In this document: in pieces, positions 1-52,492 of the stretch
Layout: every line of letters starts with the position of its first letter
Position numbering within the stretch: the stretch's first letter is position 1
NCBI GenBank assembly: GCA_963803805.1
Contig: CAWDOD010000002.1
Coordinates: 608,001 to 672,000, forward strand
Direction of reading: 5' to 3'
DNA length: 64,000 bases
Source: an uncultured cyanobacterium
Lineage (GTDB): Bacteria > Cyanobacteriota > Cyanobacteriia > Cyanobacteriales > CAWCAG01
Program-made: the position numbers and the translations under genes
Notes under the pieces: model-generated
Database searches by the model: none
The model's input: the letters and a program-made list of their open reading frames with translations, nothing else
Told to the model about the DNA's origin: nothing

Positions 1-774
1 AGTGCGATTCAAAAAGCCATTGATTATGAAATTGAACGTCAAATCGAGGCTTTAGAAACAGGAGAAACAATTCTCCAAGAAACTCGCCTTTGGCAGGAAG
101 GGAATCAATGTACCGTAAGTATGCGCATTAAGGAAGGTTCCAGCGACTATCGCTATTTCCCGGAACCAGATTTACCTCCCATTGAAGTTTCTCAAGGACA
201 ATTAACACAGTGGCAAGCTGAGTTACCGGAACTTCCTGCCAAAAAGCGTCATCATTATGAAAACAATTTGGGTCTTTCCGCCTATGATGCTAGGGTTCTA
301 ACCGATGATCGCACTATAGCTGAATATTTTGAAACGGTGGTGAAAAATGGTGCGAATCCTAAACAAGCAGTTAATTGGGTGATGGGAGATGTTGCTGCTT
401 ACTTGAATAATAATAAGTTGAGTATTACCGAAATTGCTCTCACTCCTGAGATATTGGCTGAGTTGATTGGTTTAATTGATCAAGGTACGATTAGCGGTAA
501 AATTGCCAAAGAGATATTACCTGAATTATTAGTTGGTGGCGGTTCTGCCCAAGAGTTGGTTGAGAAGAAGGGACTAGTACAAATCTCCGATACAGGAGAA
601 ATTGAAAAAATTATTGACGAAATACTCGCAGCTAATGCAGATAAGGTAGAGCAGTTTCGTAATGGCAAGACAAAAATTCGTGGCTTTTTCGTTGGTCAAG
701 TAATGAAGAAAACCAGTGGTAGAGCCGATCCAAAGCTAACTAATCAGTTGCTGAGTAAAAAACTTCAAAGTTGA
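1..774 (+). CDS. gatB: Asp-tRNA(Asn)/Glu-tRNA(Gln) amidotransferase subunit B, 5'-truncated by the window edge
   Basis: Frame 1 is open from base 1 (SAIQKAIDYEIERQ...QETRLW). It contains KEGSSDYRYFPEPDLPP and the C-terminal GFFVGQVMKKTSGRADPK. Confidence 0.97.
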   Translation, partial: SAIQKAIDYEIERQIEALETGETILQETRLWQEGNQCTVSMRIKEGSSDYRYFPEPDLPPIEVSQGQLTQWQAELPELPAKKRHHYENNLGLSAYDARVLTDDRTIAEYFETVVKNGANPKQAVNWVMGDVAAYLNNNKLSITEIALTPEILAELIGLIDQGTISGKIAKEILPELLVGGGSAQELVEKKGLVQISDTGEIEKIIDEILAANADKVEQFRNGKTKIRGFFVGQVMKKTSGRADPKLTNQLLSKKLQS

Positions 775-784
775 CAAGAGAAAT

Positions 785-806
785 AGGGGGTTGCGCCCCC
801 TTTTTT
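785..806 (+). terminator. Intrinsic terminator of gatB
   Basis: AGGGGG-TTGCG-CCCCCT hairpin followed by a T-run, about 10 nt after the stop codon. Confidence 0.8.
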
Positions 807-825
807 ATATGATTATAATGTGATA

Positions 826-883
826 AGTAGATGCACCCTGATGATTTGGGAGAGCCACTTAACTTAATTACGGCTCTCTTTTT
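826..883 (+). ncRNA. Candidate small RNA, copy 1 of a tandem array (NsiR1-like 5' end)
   Basis: TATAAT at 814-819, then AGTAGATGCACCCTGA at 826, a GAGAGCC/GGCTCTC stem (850-856/872-878) and TTTTT. Confidence 0.6.
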
Positions 884-1000
884 CTTTGCCTAATAAAGCC
901 AAGGGCAACATGACCCATTTTTATTATCCCTAATGCTCTAAACCAATGTTTGGAAAGAGCTAAATGCCCTGATTTAAAATTGCCTTATCACAATTTAGTT

Positions 1001-1052
1001 AGTAGATTCACCTTAACAACTGAGAGATTTACTTTTACAGCTTTCCTTTTTT
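1001..1052 (+). ncRNA. Candidate small RNA, copy 2 (degenerate)
   Basis: CACAAT at 989-994 with the same spacing, then AGTAGATTCACCTTAA and GAGAG..TTACTT..TTACAGCTTTCC-TTTTTT. It aligns with copy 1 along its length. Confidence 0.5.
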
Positions 1053-1153
1053 CGCCTTGAGGCTAGGTTGACTTTAGTAAAGTAATCCATGTCGATTAGA
1101 AAATAAATTTTACAGGGGTAGACCGTTTTTGTTTAAGATGCTATATTTCTCTG

Positions 1154-1209
1154 GGTAGATGCAATCTGAATTTATAATCAAGAGTGTATTTTGTACTACT
1201 CTTGAATTT
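1154..1209 (+). ncRNA. Candidate small RNA, copy 3
   Basis: TATATT at 1142-1147 with the same spacing, then GGTAGATGCAATCTGAA and a TCAAGAGT/ACTCTTGA stem (1178-1185/1198-1205). Confidence 0.45.
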
Positions 1210-1502
1210 CTCTGAAATCACTAGATTAAATTGGAACATATTTGAGAAAGCAAAAGTCTACTAGGTATTAGTAAAAATTGGCTTTTATCAATGACCTCAC
1301 CAAGAGCTAATTGGTGATATCTAGCGTATTAGATATACTATCCCCTTAATCCTGTTTTAGCTAGGGGGTAAAACCCCTCACCCCAAAATTCTAGTGCTAT
1401 TTTGTTACCGATCAAGGGAGCTAGAAGGTGGGAAGGTTAGGTCAGGATCAGGGGCTTTACTAAGATGGTCAAAATAGGCTGTAACTCTTTATCTCTGAAA
1501 GC

Positions 1503-2102
1503 TTACAATTTCTCAGTAACAGATTTCTCTTCACTATCTACCGGGGCTTCATCCCAATAAAAACGGTAGAAATAATAATCGTCAGCAAAACTTTGCTTAT
1601 CTAATACGTGATGAATCCAATCTTCATCAATTAATCTTTGCCCTAGCTTAATCGCTTGCTCTGGGGAAATTTTTAGCTTTTTTCTAAACCAAGCTACTGC
1701 TTCACTACCGATAAAACAGCGATCATAAACATTAAGCTTATAACGGCGGTCTTGAATAGATATACCATCAATATCCCGCATTTTAGTTACTAGTTTTCTC
1801 AGATCAACTTTAGAGACAACATCAGTGGTTTTCGATTTTTTAACTACTTTGGCATGGTCATCTCGATACCAAAGAGTAAAACCTCTTTTTCCTTCTACTA
1901 CCAAACACTCTACTTTGCCTTTGTGTTGCAAAAAAAATTCTCTGCTGTGTTGAATCGCATCTCTACCACGATCGAGAGGATAGGATTCTCCTTTGACATA
2001 TAGCTTGTCTTGATAGGCTATACCCTTAACTATTTTCTTCTTACCTGCTGTCTTATGACTTAATAAACAACGTTTGACATTTTTGATGCTCAAAACCAGC
2101 AT
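1503..2102 (-). CDS. DEP-domain protein
   Basis: C-terminal IQDRRYKLNVYDRCFIGSEAVAW...AIKLGQRLIDEDWIHHV...FADDYYFYRF is a typical DEP signature. Confidence 0.85.
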   Translation of the reverse strand: MLVLSIKNVKRCLLSHKTAGKKKIVKGIAYQDKLYVKGESYPLDRGRDAIQHSREFFLQHKGKVECLVVEGKRGFTLWYRDDHAKVVKKSKTTDVVSKVDLRKLVTKMRDIDGISIQDRRYKLNVYDRCFIGSEAVAWFRKKLKISPEQAIKLGQRLIDEDWIHHVLDKQSFADDYYFYRFYWDEAPVDSEEKSVTEKL

Positions 2103-2172
2103 AGACTTTCCCCTGATAAACTAACGACTCATACCATTAATCATTTATCATTAAACATCGATTATTTTTCCA

Positions 2173-3198
2173 TTAATAACGAATACGTGGATCTATATAA
2201 GCATTGACAATATCAATCAGAATACTGACTACAACAACAATGCCGCCAAAAAAGACCATAATTCCCTGTACAGTAGGATAATCTCGCAAGGAGATGGCTT
2301 CGTAGAGACGATTACCTAAACCAGGCCAAGAAAAAGTAACTTCTGTTAAGACAGCCCCTCCCAACAAAGCAGCAAAAGTTAAGCCCAAAACCGTAATCAC
2401 GGGAATGAGGGCATTTTTTAGAGCATGGTTAAACAGGATTGTCTTTTCCGAAATGCCCCTTGCCCTAGCTGCTTCAACATAATCTGCTTGTAGAGTTTGC
2501 TTAAGGTTAACCCTAACAATGCGCTCGAATATGCCACTAAGAAGAATACCTAAACACAGACAAGGTAAAGCAAGGTAGTGGAGGGTAATTAATAATTGGC
2601 TGAAATTCCCGGACAAAATACTATCAATGGTATATAACCCGGTAATTGTTTCTGGTGGCATAGTACCCACTGGAAAGCGAGTTCCTAAAGGAAACCAGCC
2701 TAACTGCACAGAGAAAATTAACTGTACAATCATTCCTACCCAAAATAAAGGTAAAGAATAGGTGATGATGCCAAATAAACGGCCTCCCACATCAAAAATA
2801 GTACCCGGCCTTGAAGCAGAAAGCATCCCTACCCCCACACCTACGATCACGGCGATCACCATACCAAATAAGGATAATTCTACAGTAGCAGGAAAATACT
2901 GTTGGATGGTTTCCCATACCGATTGACCTCTACTCGTCAAAGAGGAACCTAAATCTAAACTAAGCAATTGCTTGAGGTAGTTAAGATATTGTAACCAAAG
3001 AGGATTAGCTAGTCCTAATTCTTCCCTCAACGCCACCTTAGCTGATTCCGGAGCGCGCGCACCTAAAATAGCATCAGCAGGATCTCCGGGAGTTGCCCTC
3101 AATAACAGAAAAACCAAGGTGGTAATGGTTAGTAGCATTAAAGGGGCAAGGAATAAACGGGTTAGGACATAGTATTGTAGGGCTTTGGAACGAGACAT
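2173..3198 (-). CDS. Peptide/nickel ABC transporter permease (DppB/OppB family)
   Basis: PGDPA motif, EAA loop (DYVEAARARG), HALKNALIP and the C-terminal DPRIRY. Confidence 0.92.
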   Translation of the reverse strand: MSRSKALQYYVLTRLFLAPLMLLTITTLVFLLLRATPGDPADAILGARAPESAKVALREELGLANPLWLQYLNYLKQLLSLDLGSSLTSRGQSVWETIQQYFPATVELSLFGMVIAVIVGVGVGMLSASRPGTIFDVGGRLFGIITYSLPLFWVGMIVQLIFSVQLGWFPLGTRFPVGTMPPETITGLYTIDSILSGNFSQLLITLHYLALPCLCLGILLSGIFERIVRVNLKQTLQADYVEAARARGISEKTILFNHALKNALIPVITVLGLTFAALLGGAVLTEVTFSWPGLGNRLYEAISLRDYPTVQGIMVFFGGIVVVVSILIDIVNAYIDPRIRY

Positions 3199-14873: not shown

Positions 14874-14979
14874 GAAATAATAGAAACTAAAAGTTGATTA
14901 GTCAGGTAAAGGGAAAAGGTAATACCAGTAACTTTTCCCTTTCAAGGGTATCTCTACTTATGATTAAAGAAAAACGGTA

Positions 14980-27860: not shown

Positions 27861-28649
27861 TCAGTTTACTGCTGATACCGGTAAAGAAAAGAGTTTTGGA
27901 AACATCGGGGGAGGCTCTGGTTGAGCAAGGCCAGCCTCTAAAAAACTATATTGAATTGAAGTCAAGGACATTGGTGCGAAATCCTGATGGCGAGCTAGTG
28001 CAGCTACAGCACAGATTGGCGTTTCAAAAACAGGATATCTTCCATAGTAGAAGTTATTCCAGTCACCTCCAGTTTCCTTCATCCAGAAATTCGCAATTAT
28101 TTTCAACGATTCCTCCGTAGTTTTGTGATCTTTGTTTGGAATACTTCGAGCTAACTTCAACCAAGCATCACTATACTCATCTCGCGATTCTGATAGATTA
28201 ATATTTGGTTTGTTACTAATTAACATCCAGGTTACAAGATCTGCTTGTTGCTGGCTGTCAACTGGTTTATCTGGAATAAATTTTAGAAACTCCCATTCAC
28301 TACCTAGAGTGGCATATTGGCTGGCTCGATAAAACTCCTCTGACAAAAACAGACCGAACGCTGTCAAAGAAGACCAATGTTTCCATACATCATGGCTTGC
28401 TCCTATAGCATATAGAAAAGAAGTCAATTCATTGACGATACTAGTAAGCATTTTATTCGCTTCACCTATTTCAATAATAGATGTTTCAAGCAACTGGTCT
28501 ATACTATCTAATCCACGGCTAGAGTCTAGCAAGATTTTGTTTTTATATTCTTCCGCACCTATCCTACGAACTGGAGCATCGGGAAGAGTGATTTGCGACA
28601 ACTCTATCTCAACATATTCACGTAACGTAAAGTAGCTTAAGCGTCCCAT
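27861..28649 (-). CDS. Putative immunity protein
   Basis: Start overlaps the toxin 3' end by 13 nt, with a GGAGG Shine-Dalgarno sequence. Helical, no signal peptide. The C-terminal ICAVAALAR is loosely like Imm49/PoNi-type immunity proteins. Confidence 0.6.
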   Translation of the reverse strand: MGRLSYFTLREYVEIELSQITLPDAPVRRIGAEEYKNKILLDSSRGLDSIDQLLETSIIEIGEANKMLTSIVNELTSFLYAIGASHDVWKHWSSLTAFGLFLSEEFYRASQYATLGSEWEFLKFIPDKPVDSQQQADLVTWMLISNKPNINLSESRDEYSDAWLKLARSIPNKDHKTTEESLKIIANFWMKETGGDWNNFYYGRYPVFETPICAVAALARHQDFAPMSLTSIQYSFLEAGLAQPEPPPMFPKLFSLPVSAVN

Positions 28650-31600
28650 TCACGTAGTCCTCCCATTGCTACCGCTTTATCCTTAGCAGTTTTTTGAGCT
28701 AACCCTCCTAATAATTGAGGAGTTTGATTATCTTTTGCATCATGATATCCAATAATATTTTTCCCAGGAATGCTACCTGTGAAAGCTACCTCAGCCTCAT
28801 TGATTAGCCGATCACTTCTAGATATTTTGTTTTCTTTATGCAAAAGTTCTATATTTAGTACACCTTGTTTTGCCTGTTCTTCTATACTGAAAAGATATAC
28901 GAAGATTCTACCGACAATTCCTTGTTCACGGATATTACTTTTATCTTGTGCTTTTCCAAAAGCATATTTAGCAGCCTCTACTGAGTCCTTGGAAGTAGAA
29001 ATAAATGGTATTTTGGTAAATTCTAGCCCTTCATATCTGCCCATATTGAGTTTACTCAACTCTAATATGAACTGTTTTTTATTATTTACGTATTGATGTA
29101 TTGCCACATAAAATTTGTTTTCAAAGCCTTTTTTTGTTCCTTTGCCTTCGCTACCACGAGTTATTGGTTTCATGTAATTTGAATCTGGAGAAGATAGCAT
29201 CTCTCGCTTAATAGTTTCTACTTCCTCTTGTAACTGTTCTTGAGTAGGATTGTTGATACCGCTTTTTATTAATCGTCTGAGAGCTTGCTTCTGAGCTTTT
29301 TGGTTAAGCTTATCTGGATGAGTGTTAAGTTCTAATGCCTCTCTAGTTTTTAGAGCTTCTAATTCGTGTTGGACAATGGCTGCGGCTGACTCAAGTTCGT
29401 CTATACTAGGATTCTCTTCATCTGATAAGGACTTGGCAACTTCTTGTGTCGCCTGACTAAATTCAGGTTGACCAACAATATCATTCGCTGCTTTGCTGAC
29501 TTCTTCTTTGTATTTCTCTTCATCCCAGCTAGCCTGAAAGTGAATACCACGATATGCAGCAAGAGCGCCTTTAAGAGGACTGTCCTGTTCATCAAAAATT
29601 TCGAATAGCTGCTGAAGTGTATCTGATAATGTTTGCTCTGCTGTTTCCGTCTGATTATCAGCAGCCTCAGCCTCATTGATTGCCGCTTCATTCGCCGAAT
29701 CCTGCTTTGCTTCCTGCATTTCTTGAGCAGTTTTGTTAGCACTTTGCTCAGTTGTGTCAAGCTGCTGACGAGCCGTTGCTAACAAACCTTGTGCTTTTAC
29801 TTTATCTTCTTCTGATAATGAATCTAGTCTGCCCTGCCAATCATTAAGTTTAGCCTCAACAGGTGTTGGAGTACTAGCTACCATTACTTCTGTAGCTGTA
29901 CCTTGAGTTTTAATCCACAAACGATGTCCTTCACCTGCTGCACTAAAGGTAACTGTCTTACCAACTTCGCTATCTTCTAACTGTTCACCCTCACCTTCAT
30001 CCGGACTTTCTGCACCTTCTTTATTCTTCTTATTTTTACCATCGCCTTTACCAAAGCCAAGCTTCTTACCAATCTTCTTAGCAAACTTAACTGCCTGGGC
30101 AATCAACCACTCAATCGCTTTATCTATCGGTGCTTTAAGCTTACCAATGATGTCCTTAATTTTGTCGCTAATGCCACCTAAACCTAACAAGCTGGCCATA
30201 AAGCTAATCACCACAGGTAGAGACTTAGATAAAGCATTTTCAATTAGACTTGCTGCTCCTCCAATAGCCCCGCTAGCAATAGCCGTTACTGAGTCCATTA
30301 CAGCGTGAACTAAATCAACAATCTGACTACCACGCTCTATGAAGAACATGATTACGTCGTAAATCATCTTACAGGCTTTGACAAAAGCTGAGGCTGGATT
30401 GAGGAGACTAATAACCCACAGCACACCTTGCTTAATTACCGTTTCAATGACGAAGTTTTGGATAGTGCCAAGCACCATCTCTTTGAGATCACCAATCTTA
30501 TCTTGGACGAATTGCCATAAACCAGCTAAACCTTCATTCTTGAAGATGATGAAGATGTCAAAAGTTTTCTCTAAGCCATCAAAAATTCTTTCTCCATTTT
30601 TGCCTAAAGCTTTGATTGTTCTGGATTTGATGGAATCATAGGCTAGCCCTAATACCTGCATAACCAAGGTGAAGATGCCTTTGAGGTCAAAGCTTTCTGG
30701 CATTTGTATACCTGATTTAGCCATCGTCCCGGTTAGCCAACCGATTAATCCCTTTTTCAGATGGGGTAAAATATTGCCGACAAAGTTGTTAAAACCTTGT
30801 TTCACTCCAGAAACTAAATTCCCCAAAAACCCAATGGGGTCTAAGATAATGTTTCCAATCGCTCCTGCTGCCTTACCTAACACACCCATCAGCATATCTT
30901 TCAGTTGCATGATAGTTTGGGCTGTACCAACTATGGCATCCTTCGCTTTATCAAAAAATCCCCGATTAGCTGCCTGCATCTCTTGAATGCGGCTGTTAAC
31001 TTCCTGGATACTATTGCTGTACTGTTGAGCCAAAGAATCAATTAATTCATCCTGCTTACTATCAACACTTTGCTCTAATTGTTCAAACTGACTTTGAATA
31101 TCCTGTGCTGCTTGTTCACCAACCTGTTGTAGAGATTGAGGCAACTTAGCTACATAATCTTTAATTTGTTGTTTACCTTCACTAATTCTTTGCTTAGCTT
31201 CGTTGAGCTTCTGCGCCACAAAGTTAGCGATATCAGTCAAAGCAATATCCATTTCGTCGATGTACAGTTGCTTACCTTCGACAAAATATTGATTTACTTC
31301 CGGTGGCAATCCTACTACCGCATCGCTAAGCCGCTCATCCCAACCAGTGACATCGTACCACTCTCCATACCTTTCTTTTTCCCAGACTGCCATTTTTTCT
31401 TTAACATGGCTTTCAAACTTACCCTTAGCAGCCCCAGCAGCAGTGTCAAACTTGCTCGTTACTTCTGTATCTATACCACTGAGGATAGTTTCAACATCAG
31501 TTTTTGTAGTTGTATAAATACTATTAATATGGGTAGCCACTTCAGAGCGTTTCTGCTCATCTTGACTTTTCGCTGTTTGTTGCTGTCCCATTACCTGCCC

Positions 31601-33247
31601 TAGAAGCTGTCCACGCTCCCCGTGCATCCCCGCCAACTGAGTTTGGCTAGTAGTTTGGGCTTCCGCTTGGGATTGGTTTAAGGTTTCGCTTTCCTGCTGG
31701 CGATATGCTGCTGGGGCTTCTTGTGTATTAGTCTTGAGTTCATTCTTTGCATCCAGTGCGGCTGTAAACTGAGGTTCATTGGCTTTGGCAAGCTGTTCAT
31801 CGGTGATGTTAGCATTAGCCATCTCCTGGTCTATTTCTTGAGAGTTGGCATTTAAAGGGGCAGCTACTTCTGCTTCAGACTTTGGTTTCGGTACTGCTTT
31901 GGTGGCATCAACACCTTGAGGCTGTGTACCGGCAGGGGGAGATTGTAAAGGTTGGGAGGTTTTTGGTTCGATGCCACTGGTATCAGGTGGGGCTGCTGTT
32001 GCCTCTTCAATTGGTTTTGCTGCTTTGGCTTCTTCTTCACCTACTTGGGAAGAGACATCTTGCCTTACAGAGTCTAATTCGTTGTTTTGACCAAAGTTTT
32101 CGGCATCTTGTTCGTTGTCAGGAATGATGGCATCAATTTTCGCTAAGAGTGCAGCTTTGAAAGCGTTTGCGCTGAAAGTCCCTGGCTGCTGTTGCTCCAT
32201 TTGCTCGACTTGGGAGTCTTGAGCTTTACTTTCCACTTCATTTGGAGGGGATTGAGCAGCACCTTGAGCTTCCTGGGCTTCCGAGGTTGCTGGTTCATGC
32301 TGTTTTTCTTGGGCTGCTACACCTTTAACATCACCCACCAAGCCTTGAAAACCGGCATCTTCCCCCGCAGAGGTAGGAGAATTTCCTCCAGAAGTACCTT
32401 GTTGCATAGAGCCTACATCAGAGGTTGCTGCACTCTTTAGATTTTCTGCTTGATTGCTGGCTTCTCCTTGAGATTTTGTTTGTTCTTGGACTCCAATTGT
32501 TTCTGAATTTAGTGCTTTTTGAGGCTGGCTTTCTAATTGATTAATTGCTTTGGGTTTAATCTCTTGTTCAGGAGTTTCAATAGCAACCTTATTTCCCTGT
32601 GCCGATGATTTGTTTTCTTTATGAGGCTCCTGAACTATTGATTTTGGCTGAAGTTCTCCTTTTGCTTCTGCTGGCTGCTCCTGATTTTCCGTACTATCCT
32701 GTTGCCGTTGAAGATTCTGCCCTAAAGGTTGCTCAAAGGAGTTAGGGGCAGTTTGCCACTCTTGCTTCATCTGCTGTTGATGACTAGCAATTAGGGAATT
32801 ACGAATTTGCTGCCCTACAGCACTGTTTTGTCTACGTTCTTCTGTTCCTGCTACAGTGTCAAGGTTGATGGCTTGGGCTTGAATTGAGGGTTTCTGCCCA
32901 AAATTTAGGGTATAGGAACTCTCCATCCCCATACTTTCCCCTTGCCCTACTAATATTGAACTCCGTACTCTATTAGTAAATGCGGCTCTATCTTCTGCTG
33001 ATAAAGTGGAATTTCTTTGTAAACGCTCTTCAGCTTCTACTATGGTTTCTACCTTAGAAGAAGGACTGGTTTGAACGAAAGAGTCGTCTAGGCTTATTGG
33101 AGGCGGCTCTGGGGGGACATTTTTAAGCTTTTGTATCTGTTCACTAGTTCTTTCTTTCGCTACTGGGGGTTTAGCAACAGGGGGCTGTGACTTCTTTTGA
33201 ACAGGAGCAGAAGAGGACTTTTTTGGGTGAGTGATGTGGGCTTTCAT
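28637..33247 (-). CDS. Large polymorphic-toxin-like protein with a C-terminal ADP-ribosyltransferase-fold domain
   Basis: Low-complexity Q/P/E/S N-terminus, coiled-coil stalk and hydrophobic helical block. The tip has Y1232-R-G, FIS1417TS and E1484-A-E1486VAFTGSIP. Confidence 0.78.
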   Translation of the reverse strand: MKAHITHPKKSSSAPVQKKSQPPVAKPPVAKERTSEQIQKLKNVPPEPPPISLDDSFVQTSPSSKVETIVEAEERLQRNSTLSAEDRAAFTNRVRSSILVGQGESMGMESSYTLNFGQKPSIQAQAINLDTVAGTEERRQNSAVGQQIRNSLIASHQQQMKQEWQTAPNSFEQPLGQNLQRQQDSTENQEQPAEAKGELQPKSIVQEPHKENKSSAQGNKVAIETPEQEIKPKAINQLESQPQKALNSETIGVQEQTKSQGEASNQAENLKSAATSDVGSMQQGTSGGNSPTSAGEDAGFQGLVGDVKGVAAQEKQHEPATSEAQEAQGAAQSPPNEVESKAQDSQVEQMEQQQPGTFSANAFKAALLAKIDAIIPDNEQDAENFGQNNELDSVRQDVSSQVGEEEAKAAKPIEEATAAPPDTSGIEPKTSQPLQSPPAGTQPQGVDATKAVPKPKSEAEVAAPLNANSQEIDQEMANANITDEQLAKANEPQFTAALDAKNELKTNTQEAPAAYRQQESETLNQSQAEAQTTSQTQLAGMHGERGQLLGQVMGQQQTAKSQDEQKRSEVATHINSIYTTTKTDVETILSGIDTEVTSKFDTAAGAAKGKFESHVKEKMAVWEKERYGEWYDVTGWDERLSDAVVGLPPEVNQYFVEGKQLYIDEMDIALTDIANFVAQKLNEAKQRISEGKQQIKDYVAKLPQSLQQVGEQAAQDIQSQFEQLEQSVDSKQDELIDSLAQQYSNSIQEVNSRIQEMQAANRGFFDKAKDAIVGTAQTIMQLKDMLMGVLGKAAGAIGNIILDPIGFLGNLVSGVKQGFNNFVGNILPHLKKGLIGWLTGTMAKSGIQMPESFDLKGIFTLVMQVLGLAYDSIKSRTIKALGKNGERIFDGLEKTFDIFIIFKNEGLAGLWQFVQDKIGDLKEMVLGTIQNFVIETVIKQGVLWVISLLNPASAFVKACKMIYDVIMFFIERGSQIVDLVHAVMDSVTAIASGAIGGAASLIENALSKSLPVVISFMASLLGLGGISDKIKDIIGKLKAPIDKAIEWLIAQAVKFAKKIGKKLGFGKGDGKNKKNKEGAESPDEGEGEQLEDSEVGKTVTFSAAGEGHRLWIKTQGTATEVMVASTPTPVEAKLNDWQGRLDSLSEEDKVKAQGLLATARQQLDTTEQSANKTAQEMQEAKQDSANEAAINEAEAADNQTETAEQTLSDTLQQLFEIFDEQDSPLKGALAAYRGIHFQASWDEEKYKEEVSKAANDIVGQPEFSQATQEVAKSLSDEENPSIDELESAAAIVQHELEALKTREALELNTHPDKLNQKAQKQALRRLIKSGINNPTQEQLQEEVETIKREMLSSPDSNYMKPITRGSEGKGTKKGFENKFYVAIHQYVNNKKQFILELSKLNMGRYEGLEFTKIPFISTSKDSVEAAKYAFGKAQDKSNIREQGIVGRIFVYLFSIEEQAKQGVLNIELLHKENKISRSDRLINEAEVAFTGSIPGKNIIGYHDAKDNQTPQLLGGLAQKTAKDKAVAMGGLREWDA

Positions 33248-33422: not shown

Positions 33423-34801
33423 TCAATACCAAGATAGCAACCACATACGGGCAGCAAATTCAGATTGAGAAAGAGGTAAACCAAGATAAATTGGCAACCA
33501 AAATAGCCAAGCACAAAAAATAATTGCGATTCGCAATTATTCCACAGTATTTGTATTGCACAATTGAACTATGTAAACATTGGTCAATTAACCAACTGAG
33601 GGCGAGAAAAGCGAAGATAGAAGCTCCCATATAATGGTAAATATAAGTACAGCGAGTTACTTTAATCCAAGGTAAAAAGTTGGCAGCGTAGTTGAAGATT
33701 AGAAAAATTGGGATACAAAAGTTTTCAGAGTGAATTTTTTGCCCCTTGTAATACTTACTTGATTGGGCAAATAAGCTCCCTAAGACAATTAATATTGCTA
33801 AACTGGAAAGCCACCAAAGTAGAGGATTGCCTAAAGCGTGAACATCATGTACCGTTAACTCACTCACCCCGTTACTAACTTGCTTATAATAGTAGCCAAC
33901 AGGACGAAGCATTAAGGGCCAAGTGTACCAGGCAGAACAATAGGGATGGGTTGCAGTTGTATTACCAATACTGTGGTGATAACCCAAAATTTGTTGGTGT
34001 ACTTGCCAGAAATTAAATTCTTGGTTTAAGGCTAAATGAGGAATCCATAATAGGCGGTAAATTAAGGCTGGAATTATAGCGAAGTTGAGCAGAAAATCCC
34101 AGGAATTAACTTTACTTAATTGTTGCCATAAAGGATGGTGTAAAGAGAATTTTAGCTTTTTTGTGACTTTGACGAAACCATAAAATAGATAAACTCCCAA
34201 CAAAAAGCCTAAACCATTCCACTTAACAGCAAGACAAAAACCAAAAAAGATTCCTGAAGCGAGGAAGTAAAATTGTTGTTTACTAGAATAATTAAGAGCG
34301 ATAAGAAATAATAACTGCCCCAATAAGCCGAAAGCAAGCAAATAAATATTAATTAACCCATAACGGGATTCTACTAATAATAAACCGTCTGTAGCTGCTA
34401 AAAAGCTAGCAATAAAGGCATAGCTATAACGGCGAGTTAATTGATAGGAGATCGCACTAATTATTAGGGGCAGAAAGCTACCCGGTTAAAGCATTTAACC
34501 AGCGATAGGCGTAGGCAAAGCCCGCCGTAGGCATCGCTGTATTACCTTGCTTGAAAAAATTGGTATGCAGCCAAATCCCCATACTAATTAAGTACTTGCC
34601 TAAAGGGGGATGAACATCAAAGAAAGGAACTTGTTGAAGATAGTTATAGCCGTATTTAGCAAAATAAACTTCATCAAAAACAAATTCATTAAAACGTCCC
34701 AAGCCCCAAAACCTCAAGCCAAAAGACAACAAAAATATTGCCAGGATACCGATAGCGAATAAACGATTAATGCCCTTACTAAGTACTTCGTCTTTCCCCA
34801 T
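33423..34801 (-). CDS. Dolichyl-phosphate-mannose-protein mannosyltransferase (PMT, GT-C) family, split by two apparent +1 frameshifts
   Basis: VFDEVYF, DVHPPLGK, ESRYGL (in the gap between the track ORFs), KWNG, HPYCSAW and YIYHY. Removing one base at 34481-34483 and one at 33526-33534 gives a single ORF ending WLPIYLGLPLS...WLLSWY*. Confidence 0.88.
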
Positions 34802-52460: not shown

Positions 52461-52492
52461 AAAAAGAGCGAGTTATTAAATAACTCGCTCTT
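52461..52492 (-). terminator. Intrinsic terminator, possibly bidirectional
   Basis: Perfect 13-bp stem AAGAGCGAGTTAT/ATAACTCGCTCTT between convergent genes, with a T-run on the minus strand. Confidence 0.8.

Follow-up and report, generated by a model that had tools for sequence, protein, structure and literature searches.

The region downstream of gatB

The window analysed here is a 64,000-nucleotide stretch of DNA from an uncultured cyanobacterium (contig CAWDOD010000002.1, positions 608,001 to 672,000 of the forward strand); it contains 27 HIP1 octamers and is cyanobacterial. It opens with the 3′ part of gatB (1–774, forward strand), recognised by the Pfam domains GatB_Yqey (E = 1.6e-60) and GatB_N (E = 2.1e-18). 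A gap without open reading frames (ORFs) follows and ends at a minus-strand gene that faces it (1503–2102) and encodes a protein of 199 aa; its DEP domain (Pfam, E = 1.7e-22) is of a kind familiar mainly from eukaryotic signalling proteins. Within this gap lie a palindrome immediately behind gatB, three tandem units with the architecture of small-RNA (sRNA) genes and, farther downstream, a second, orphan palindrome. The first unit begins with the 5′ sequence of the cyanobacterial sRNA NsiR1 (Rfam RF02399), which in Nostoc/Anabaena depends on HetR and is expressed specifically in heterocysts. As judged from sequence, the gap is likely to be a locus of a conserved cyanobacterial sRNA class, here termed class B, that is a sister of NsiR1 and not NsiR1 itself.

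The three units are marked by the motif GTAGATKCA, which occurs three times in the 64 kb, each time on the forward strand (827–835, 1002–1010 and 1155–1163). The count alone is weak evidence, with 0.93 matches expected by chance per window and three or more reached in 5 of 100 shuffles; the point is the clustering of the matches within 330 nt of one ORF-free gap. Successive unit starts are spaced by 175 and 153 nt, and the hexamers TATAAT (814–819), CACAAT (989–994) and TATATT (1142–1147) each end 7 nt before the R of RGTAGATKCA, a register that corresponds to the −10 position (−13 to −8 from the motif G) in 57 related units elsewhere. All three units lie on one strand and combine a promoter with a terminator, forming a tandem array in which each copy has its own predicted promoter, as is the case for NsiR1. 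The initial annotation of this DNA had described three units with this motif, hexamer register and a downstream hairpin, and that description was borne out, with motifs at 827, 1002 and 1155.

Unit 1 (825–886, forward strand) is a canonical class B sRNA gene. It scores 61.3 bits (E = 2.9e-18) against R1, a covariance model built from 51 dereplicated class B RNAs that includes no window sequence and was searched against the window with filters off; the E-values of this model are rough. The score falls within the range of 54–80 bits seen for other class B members. When the promoter is included (780–884), a nhmmer profile of 57 units with their promoters gives 62.1 bits (E = 1.6e-18). The unit comprises a single-stranded 5′ seed (826–843), a terminator stem in which 848–856 pairs with 872–880, and a U-run (881–886), and it folds with a free 5′ end followed by the 9-bp stem and U-run at −13.1 kcal/mol (z = −1.39). 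Its TATAAT occupies the −13 to −8 register of the class B TATAnT consensus and is preceded by a palindrome about 40 nt before the motif, and gatB, on the same strand, lies directly upstream, its end at 774 and the motif start at 827. Unit 1 alone agrees at 16 of 16 positions with the conserved NsiR1 5′ sequence GUAGAUGCACCCUGAU.

The other two units depart from this pattern. Unit 2 (989–1053, forward strand) consists of CACAAT, the motif GTAGATTCACCTTAAC (12 of 16 positions), a weak stem and T6. It aligns to R1 over its full length with two non-standard pairs (24.6 bits, E = 2.1e-06) and scores 13.2 bits (E = 0.0025) with nhmmer; its lowest-energy fold, which is weak (−5.7 kcal/mol), pairs the 5′ motif that would form the seed, and no palindrome is found upstream of it. 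The claim that copies 1 and 2 align throughout holds, in that both fit one covariance model over their whole length. Unit 3 (1115–1213, forward strand) has a left half palindrome, GGGGTAGACC (1115–1124), the GGGGT of which (1115–1119) is in the register of unit 1, and a well-placed extended −10 element with TG at 1139–1140 ahead of its TATATT. The motif GTAGATGCAATCTGAA (13 of 16) and a hairpin (1178–1205) follow. Unit 3 scores 7.4 bits (E = 0.75) against R1 and, with its promoter (1115–1169), 8.0 bits (E = 0.11) with nhmmer; its fold has a good stem (−13.2 kcal/mol, z = −2.33) and a poor U tail. The sole NtcA-type GTA-N8-TAC site in the gap (1186) lies inside this hairpin and not at a promoter position, and was rejected.

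The orphan palindrome, GGGGG-TAAAA-CCCC followed by TCACCCC (1358–1393, forward strand), unexpectedly matches the nhmmer profile in its promoter part alone (positions 5–40; 13.7 bits, E = 0.0017). It holds GGGG-N5-CCCC at 1365–1377, and a TG-n-TATTTT at 1395–1403 stands 5 nt farther from it than the class consensus spacing; no recognisable sRNA lies behind it. Either a vestige of a fourth unit or an independent site for a protein might account for it. Given R1 scores of 61.3, 24.6 and 7.4 bits for units 1, 2 and 3, the locus is best described as a single canonical class B gene accompanied by two copies that are diverged siblings or relics and by an orphan palindrome. Of the three units proposed initially, only unit 1 is canonical.

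An sRNA class and a predicted sister class that share one seed

The exact 16-mer of unit 1 (827–842), which is the invariant start of classical NsiR1 copies, was scanned in one genome per species of the GTDB set and found at 119 loci or more. All counts of class A and class B loci and units given below refer to the listed loci and are lower bounds biased towards canonical seeds. The listed loci are nearly all cyanobacterial; three single matches in other phyla (L028, L030 and L044) have no sRNA-like context. Among 201 units with full flanks, 114 carry TCC[GT]GA starting at −38 to −36 from the motif, which defines class A, the classical DIF1-type NsiR1. Another 54 carry GGG-N5-CCC, which starts at exactly −40 in 46 of them; these are class B. 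Neither motif is present in 33 units, mostly one-base variants of one or the other, and none of the 201 has both.

The two classes also separate by covariance model. Class A copies pass the Rfam gathering threshold for NsiR1, which is 39 bits (Nostoc, 65–78 bits; Microcoleus, 45–57; Trichodesmium IMS101, 53.5; Symploca, 47–52; Waterburya, 45.2), whereas class B stays under it (Scytonema, 35.5–37.9 bits; the others fell short of E = 0.01). The R1 consensus consists of a free 5′ part and then an 8-bp helix, with the terminator GGGAGAGC. In this helix 96.3% of cells are paired and compensatory changes occur in 5 of 8 pairs, values that none of 500 shuffles reached. Class B units score 54–80 bits on R1 (63 units in 39 loci, 51 of which built the model), diverged second copies 41–49 bits and class A copies 19–36 bits. 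These scores come from 50 of the listed loci, and the other 69 gave no match at E ≤ 1e-9.

Class B is linked to gatB. By tblastn, gatB lies upstream on the same strand, 74–1892 nt before the motif, in 24 of 38 listed class B loci and in 0 of 78 other listed loci; for many listed loci, BLASTN with window positions 1–2300 likewise showed gatB to be the gene just before the motif. Class B is present in the heterocyst formers Nostoc, Anabaena, Dolichospermum, Trichormus, Westiellopsis, Scytonema, Heteroscytonema and Rivularia. It is also found in Microcoleus, Symploca, Symplocastrum, Lyngbya, Phormidesmis, Leptolyngbya, Crinalium, Limnothrix, Waterburya, Hydrococcus and Chroococcidiopsis, genera not known to form heterocysts. 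Four assemblies contain both classes on different contigs (L014/L096, L005/L117, L060/L011 and L061/L053). Repeats were noticed in three stretches of two loci (L047 5207–5532 and 2535–2716; L017 5316–5591). The class B units of Westiellopsis are followed, some 2 kb farther on, by a CRISPR-DR5 array, and parts of L017 and L047 matched plant microRNA-precursor models on both strands, far below threshold, which suggests long hairpin-forming repeats.

Four class A arrays (L002, L015, L001 and L011), three in Nostocales and one in Crinalium, adjoin a divergent ORF of about 870–910 aa with a CHAT domain, in the position expected of hetF; other class A loci have other neighbours. Class A copies with TCCGGA or TCCTGA at the DIF1 position, about −37, occur in many loci (among them L004, L022, L038, L053, L008, L010, L011 and L012), including those of Microcoleus, Trichodesmium IMS101, Symploca (seven tandem copies), Waterburya, Leptolyngbyaceae, Nodosilinea, Crinalium and Roseofilum, groups not known to form heterocysts. 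Those scored with Rfam, from Microcoleus (L004), Trichodesmium (L022), Symploca (L038) and Waterburya (L053), exceed the NsiR1 threshold. Given these DIF1-type copies, the ‘heterocyst-specific’ promoter motif extends beyond the heterocyst formers.

A GatB tree of 19 loci and the window sets the window outside a clade with 100/99 support that holds the named heterocyst formers; its nearest neighbours, with weak support, are Symplocastrum (78% identity), Symploca and Waterburya. The synteny and this tree together indicate that the gatB context is conserved and not new to this genome, and that the host is probably not a heterocyst former. The initial annotation was right to propose a family united by its seed and set apart by promoter and neighbour, and wrong to call the genomic context new, since the gatB-linked arrangement is also present in heterocyst formers, which carry both classes.

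Comparison with these loci bears on whether only unit 1 yields a working RNA, with units 2 and 3 and the orphan palindrome being relics that past tandem duplication left without function. The low class-model scores (24.6 and 7.4 bits) favour relics, as do the poor −10 element (CACAAT), absent palindrome and sequestered seed of unit 2 and the lack of a proper U tail in unit 3. Extra copies elsewhere often vary in their first four bases and retain AGATGCACCCTGATG, and siblings in several other genomes keep this core; window units 2 and 3 do not. On the other side, the register of hexamer and motif is preserved in all three units, and the TG-n-TATATT of unit 3 is well placed. Loci of Nostoc, Trichormus and Dolichospermum also hold second copies whose cores have diverged, and diverged NsiR1 copies are reported, in passages of PMC9045159, to act on different targets. 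We see the case for relics as evenly balanced; units 2 and 3 would be either diverging sibling sRNAs or decaying copies.

The promoter palindrome and its likeness to HetR sites

The palindrome behind gatB, GGGGG-TTGCG-CCCCC (786–800) followed by T6 (785–806 in all, forward strand), has the form of a terminator, with a hairpin at 785–801 and a T-run. It is probably the gatB terminator hairpin and at the same time occupies the −35 position of the unit 1 promoter, with GGGG-N5-CCCC at 787–799 (−40 from the motif G) and GGG-N5-CCC at 788–798 (−39). In the window, GGGG-N5-CCCC occurs only here and in the orphan palindrome, both within the gap (2 found, 0.38 expected), and the shorter GGG-N5-CCC occurs about as often as chance predicts (7 sites, 7.8 expected). 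The promoter description in the initial annotation was correct in its hexamers and overlooked this upstream palindrome, the most distinctive feature of the promoter.

Relative to the motif G, the class B promoter consensus reads aaataaGGGGTgtcaCCCCtCA.ccc.a.a.TG.TATA.T.TG.TAA, with the palindrome at −41 to −26, the position of a −35 box, and TATAnT at −13 to −8; TG at −16/−15, which makes an extended −10 element, is present in 43 of 57 class B units. In the 457 kb of fetched loci, 48 of 55 GGGG-N5-CCCC sites stand at −44 to −38 of a AGATGCACC core, and the remaining 7 compare with about 5 expected. In none of the 57 class B units elsewhere is the palindrome followed by a T-run. The class B tandem arrays L046, L049, L059 (seven copies), L066, L081 and L104 have a palindrome for each of their units, and its distance from the −10 element is fixed in the class (46 of 54 at −40). 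Conservation of the G and C runs, and of an asymmetric CA two bases beyond the C-run, extends to the sequence and not just to the pairing. The absence of T-runs elsewhere, the separate copy for each tandem unit, the fixed distance and the specificity of the palindrome indicate that it is more than a terminator in class B.

The palindrome resembles the binding sites of HetR. HetR binds the hetP inverted repeat 5′-GAGGGGTCTAACCCCTC-3′, HetR crystal structures define the requirement GGGnnnnnCCC, and the hetZ site is related to GGGTCTAgCCCagCA (all in passages of PMC4192349); the 21-mer hetP site that was crystallised is printed in the part of PMC4649674 consulted. This GGG-N5-CCC core, the recognition feature of the HetR dimer, is present in the window at 788–798 and 1366–1376. 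Class B shares with the HetR-box promoters of Anabaena PCC 7120 (hetP and hetZ) the core required in the HetR–DNA structures; its GGGGT....CCCCtCA parallels the hetZ-type GGGTCTAgCCCagCA and the hetP sites, and the CA two bases after the C-run is found in the hetZ-type site as well. By hand count, Scytonema class B units match the hetP 21-mer at 18 of 21 positions and the orphan palindrome matches it at 14 of 21. The likeness of class B to hetP and hetZ is one of sequence. It differs from them in the window, where the palindrome covers the −35 position and probably also serves to terminate gatB. In the HetR chromatin immunoprecipitation sequencing tables (main text and two supplements of PMC4192349), the words searched revealed no gatB-adjacent peak, and ‘gatB’ does not occur in the supplements; no HetR is named among the window ORFs scanned, which represent 64 kb of the genome. 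We tentatively suggest, from this resemblance, that the palindrome may be a HetR-type operator and that HetR, rather than the DIF1 system, may set expression of class B.

Alternatively, unit 1 could be a real sRNA gene with a constitutive promoter, the palindrome being an RNA hairpin or terminator copied along with the duplications and unrelated to HetR. Directly after gatB in the window, the palindrome with its T6 is a textbook terminator; the A-rich tract that precedes the palindrome in 27 of 57 units could terminate minus-strand transcripts; a perfect or extended −10 element could suffice without a −35 box; and some class B units have no palindrome. A copied terminator is, by contrast, difficult to reconcile with the lack of any T-run in the 57 units elsewhere, the fixed distance to the −10 element, the retention of G/C runs and the asymmetric CA beyond what pairing requires and the near-absence of the palindrome from the rest of the 457 kb of loci. 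We regard this alternative as rather doubtful.

Relation to NsiR1 and implications

At gathering thresholds, Rfam gave no match in the whole window. At relaxed thresholds, NsiR1 was the best Rfam match in the gap, for unit 1 (26.7 bits, E = 0.0058) and unit 3 (22.3 bits, E = 0.071), and unit 2 gave no match to NsiR1 at E up to 10. Unit 1 follows the NsiR1 consensus over its first ~17 positions and then departs from it. Further Rfam matches in the gap, among them Bp1_162, sraA and STnc50 (E = 1.4–8.3), were rejected as terminator look-alikes. By the Rfam criterion, the window units are not NsiR1 family members. The 5′ motif is that of NsiR1, as had been recognised from the outset; family membership fails in the Infernal comparison, in which every unit is under the threshold.

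It is very unlikely that the units are a divergent form of the NsiR1 family proper that acts in heterocyst differentiation, in a host that is a heterocyst former with an unusual array. The identity of the first 16 nt of unit 1 to classical NsiR1, the rank of NsiR1 as best Rfam match for units 1 and 3 and the tandem multi-copy layout described for NsiR1 would fit such an assignment, but all scores are below 39 bits, whereas class A copies pass even in non-heterocystous taxa (45–57 bits). The DIF1 motif TCCGGA, an NsiR1 feature, is absent near −35 of the copies, its occurrence nearest to the gap being at 3047, and no hetF-like ORF with a CHAT domain is found among the 52 window ORFs examined (24 by Pfam, 45 by NCBIfam); both absences had been pointed out in the initial annotation and are confirmed. 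Moreover, classes A and B are separate loci in the same genomes, and the GatB tree sets the window outside the heterocyst-former clade. As a claim of membership, the assignment is largely refuted.

Class B and NsiR1 nevertheless have much in common: unit 1 and NsiR1 do not differ in their first 16 nt; NsiR1 and the predicted class B RNA both measure ~55–60 nt, leave the 5′ end unpaired and end in a terminator hairpin; and both form tandem, slightly divergent copies, each with its own promoter (predicted in the window). Base pairing at 5′ untranslated regions (UTRs) or start regions is probably the working mode of class B as well. They differ in that the window units are under the Rfam threshold; in the −35 region, which is a GGGG-N5-CCCC palindrome in class B and TCCGGA in NsiR1; in the terminator stem, GGGAGAGC/GCUCUCC as opposed to the CCCCUGG type; and in location, class B lying after gatB and NsiR1 beside a divergent CHAT-domain (hetF-like) gene. 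Class B also extends to many lineages without heterocysts, and one genome may carry it together with class A. Multicopy sibling sRNAs of other bacteria are alike in that several copies, tandem or dispersed, use a common seed or one that has shifted slightly, but these are sequence-unrelated families and the analogy is one of layout only; redundant or diversified targeting is discussed for such families in passages of PMC9045159.

PMC9045159 also reports that NsiR1 inhibits hetF translation as an antisense RNA and represses alr3234 by pairing at the translation initiation region, and a part of PMC11797042 reports that NsiR1 is bound by PatR, a widely conserved RNA-binding protein. The literature consulted treats NsiR1 as a marker of heterocyst development, and verified NsiR1 is limited to heterocyst formers according to the portion of the review PMC6596454 consulted. 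Table S3 of PMC4734099 gives NsiR1 homologues in 38 of 89 genomes, 27 heterocystous and 11 not; by hand count of its columns, the 11 are Trichodesmium IMS101, Arthrospira PCC 8005, four Oscillatoria/Microcoleus strains, Spirulina, Crinalium, Geitlerinema and two Leptolyngbya. Among the 327 Nostoc 7120 predictions in that table, the motif is found only in the NsiR1 row, and there is no class B row. An NsiR1-like RNA is mentioned in Limnospira in a passage of PMC8400943, and the rows listed in its supplement include three Rfam-predicted NsiR1 loci with read counts, none of which adjoins gatB (653487–654971). In view of Table S3 and the Limnospira listings, NsiR1-like sequences outside heterocyst formers have already been recorded, without analysis. 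The literature searched yielded no description of a gatB-linked class or of its palindrome, and class B is apparently undescribed and widely conserved.

It is exceedingly improbable that the gap contains no RNA gene and that its features reflect coincidental resemblance, a mobile repeat or sites in the DNA that regulate gatB or the gene downstream: the 9-mer count is only weakly above chance (5 of 100 shuffles) and an RNA is deduced here from sequence, but unit 1 reaches E = 2.9e-18 and 1.6e-18 against independent models, the helix covaries, the synteny is conserved across distant cyanobacteria, and the units combine promoter and terminator in a single-strand orientation.

For class B, the family defined by sequence and structure, its synteny and the layout of its promoter are computed results, and several observations temper the assignment of the gap to this class. 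The fold of unit 1 taken alone is unexceptional (19 of 200 shuffles fold equally well), and its TG is one base off the extended −10 register. Units 2 and 3 score outside the 54–80-bit range of the class, and their seeds differ from the 16-mer at 4 and 3 of 16 positions, respectively. Among the listed loci, the best gatB nucleotide identity to the window is ~72% and the best GatB protein identity is 78%. Fourteen of the 38 class B loci are without gatB; 6 of these span ≤1330 nt and 8 have longer flanks. The palindrome with its T6 may in this genome be just the gatB terminator, and it agrees with the hetP 21-mer at 10 of 21 positions by hand count, in the core only. Class B units of Hydrococcus (L109), Chroococcidiopsis (L116) and L026 have no palindrome, and that of Nostoc is degenerate. 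The transcript start sites and ends of class B units are predictions.

Elsewhere in the window, R1 has a weak full-length match at 14908–14959 (minus strand; 8.9 bits, E = 0.26) that begins AAGUAGAGAUACCCU and has the stem GGGAAAAG/CUUUUCCC; it is probably due to chance. The best match to the helix part of R1 outside the units (15.4 and 11.4 bits) is a bidirectional terminator-like hairpin, AGCGAGUUAU...AUAACUCGCU, at 52461–52492. A 1536-aa ORF (28637–33247, minus strand) has no Pfam or NCBIfam match at the thresholds used. Two adjacent minus-strand ORFs, 33460–34341 and 34478–34801, resemble the C-terminal (PMT_4TMC) and N-terminal (PMT) parts, respectively, of a protein O-mannosyltransferase and may be a split or frameshifted gene.

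If the gap is a class B locus, unit 1 (about 825–886) would be an intact gene with its own sigma-70-type promoter (TATAAT at 814–819), in which the palindrome stands in the position of a −35 box. Its RNA would be ~58 nt long and consist of the unpaired 5′ seed AGUAGAUGCACCCUGAUG and an intrinsic terminator, and units 2 and 3 would be tandem duplicates of a unit of this type with mutated seeds and weakened promoter or terminator parts. The class B RNA may pair through its 5′ end with the translation-initiation or 5′-UTR regions of target mRNAs, as NsiR1 does, possibly with the help of a PatR-type RNA-binding protein. With up to 3 mismatches, the seed or its complement is found in the window only at units 1 and 3, and no candidate target site is present in the 64 kb.

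A second, predicted RNA class therefore carries the NsiR1 seed. It has promoters of its own, is linked to gatB, occurs in many non-heterocystous cyanobacteria and falls under the Rfam threshold, and annotation pipelines would need a new covariance model to detect it. It is conceivable, though doubtful, that class B is an old HetR-box-driven sRNA that shares with NsiR1 the invariant ~15-nt core AGAUGCACCCUGAUG, and that the module leading from HetR to this sRNA seed predates heterocysts. Were this true, class B would have been kept beside gatB from Leptolyngbya- or Oscillatoria-like filaments through baeocyte formers to heterocyst formers, and the DIF1-driven NsiR1 arrays would be a later or parallel branch of one RNA. 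In that case, a seed that does not vary across the phylum would suggest a single conserved site, in a target or for an RNA-binding protein, which comparative target prediction could find. The role of hetR outside heterocyst formers is described as an open question in a passage of PMC8400943. If transcribed, class B would be a new conserved regulator in filamentous and baeocystous cyanobacteria, a candidate direct target of HetR outside heterocyst formers and a natural experiment in which sibling sRNAs have gained different promoters yet kept one seed.

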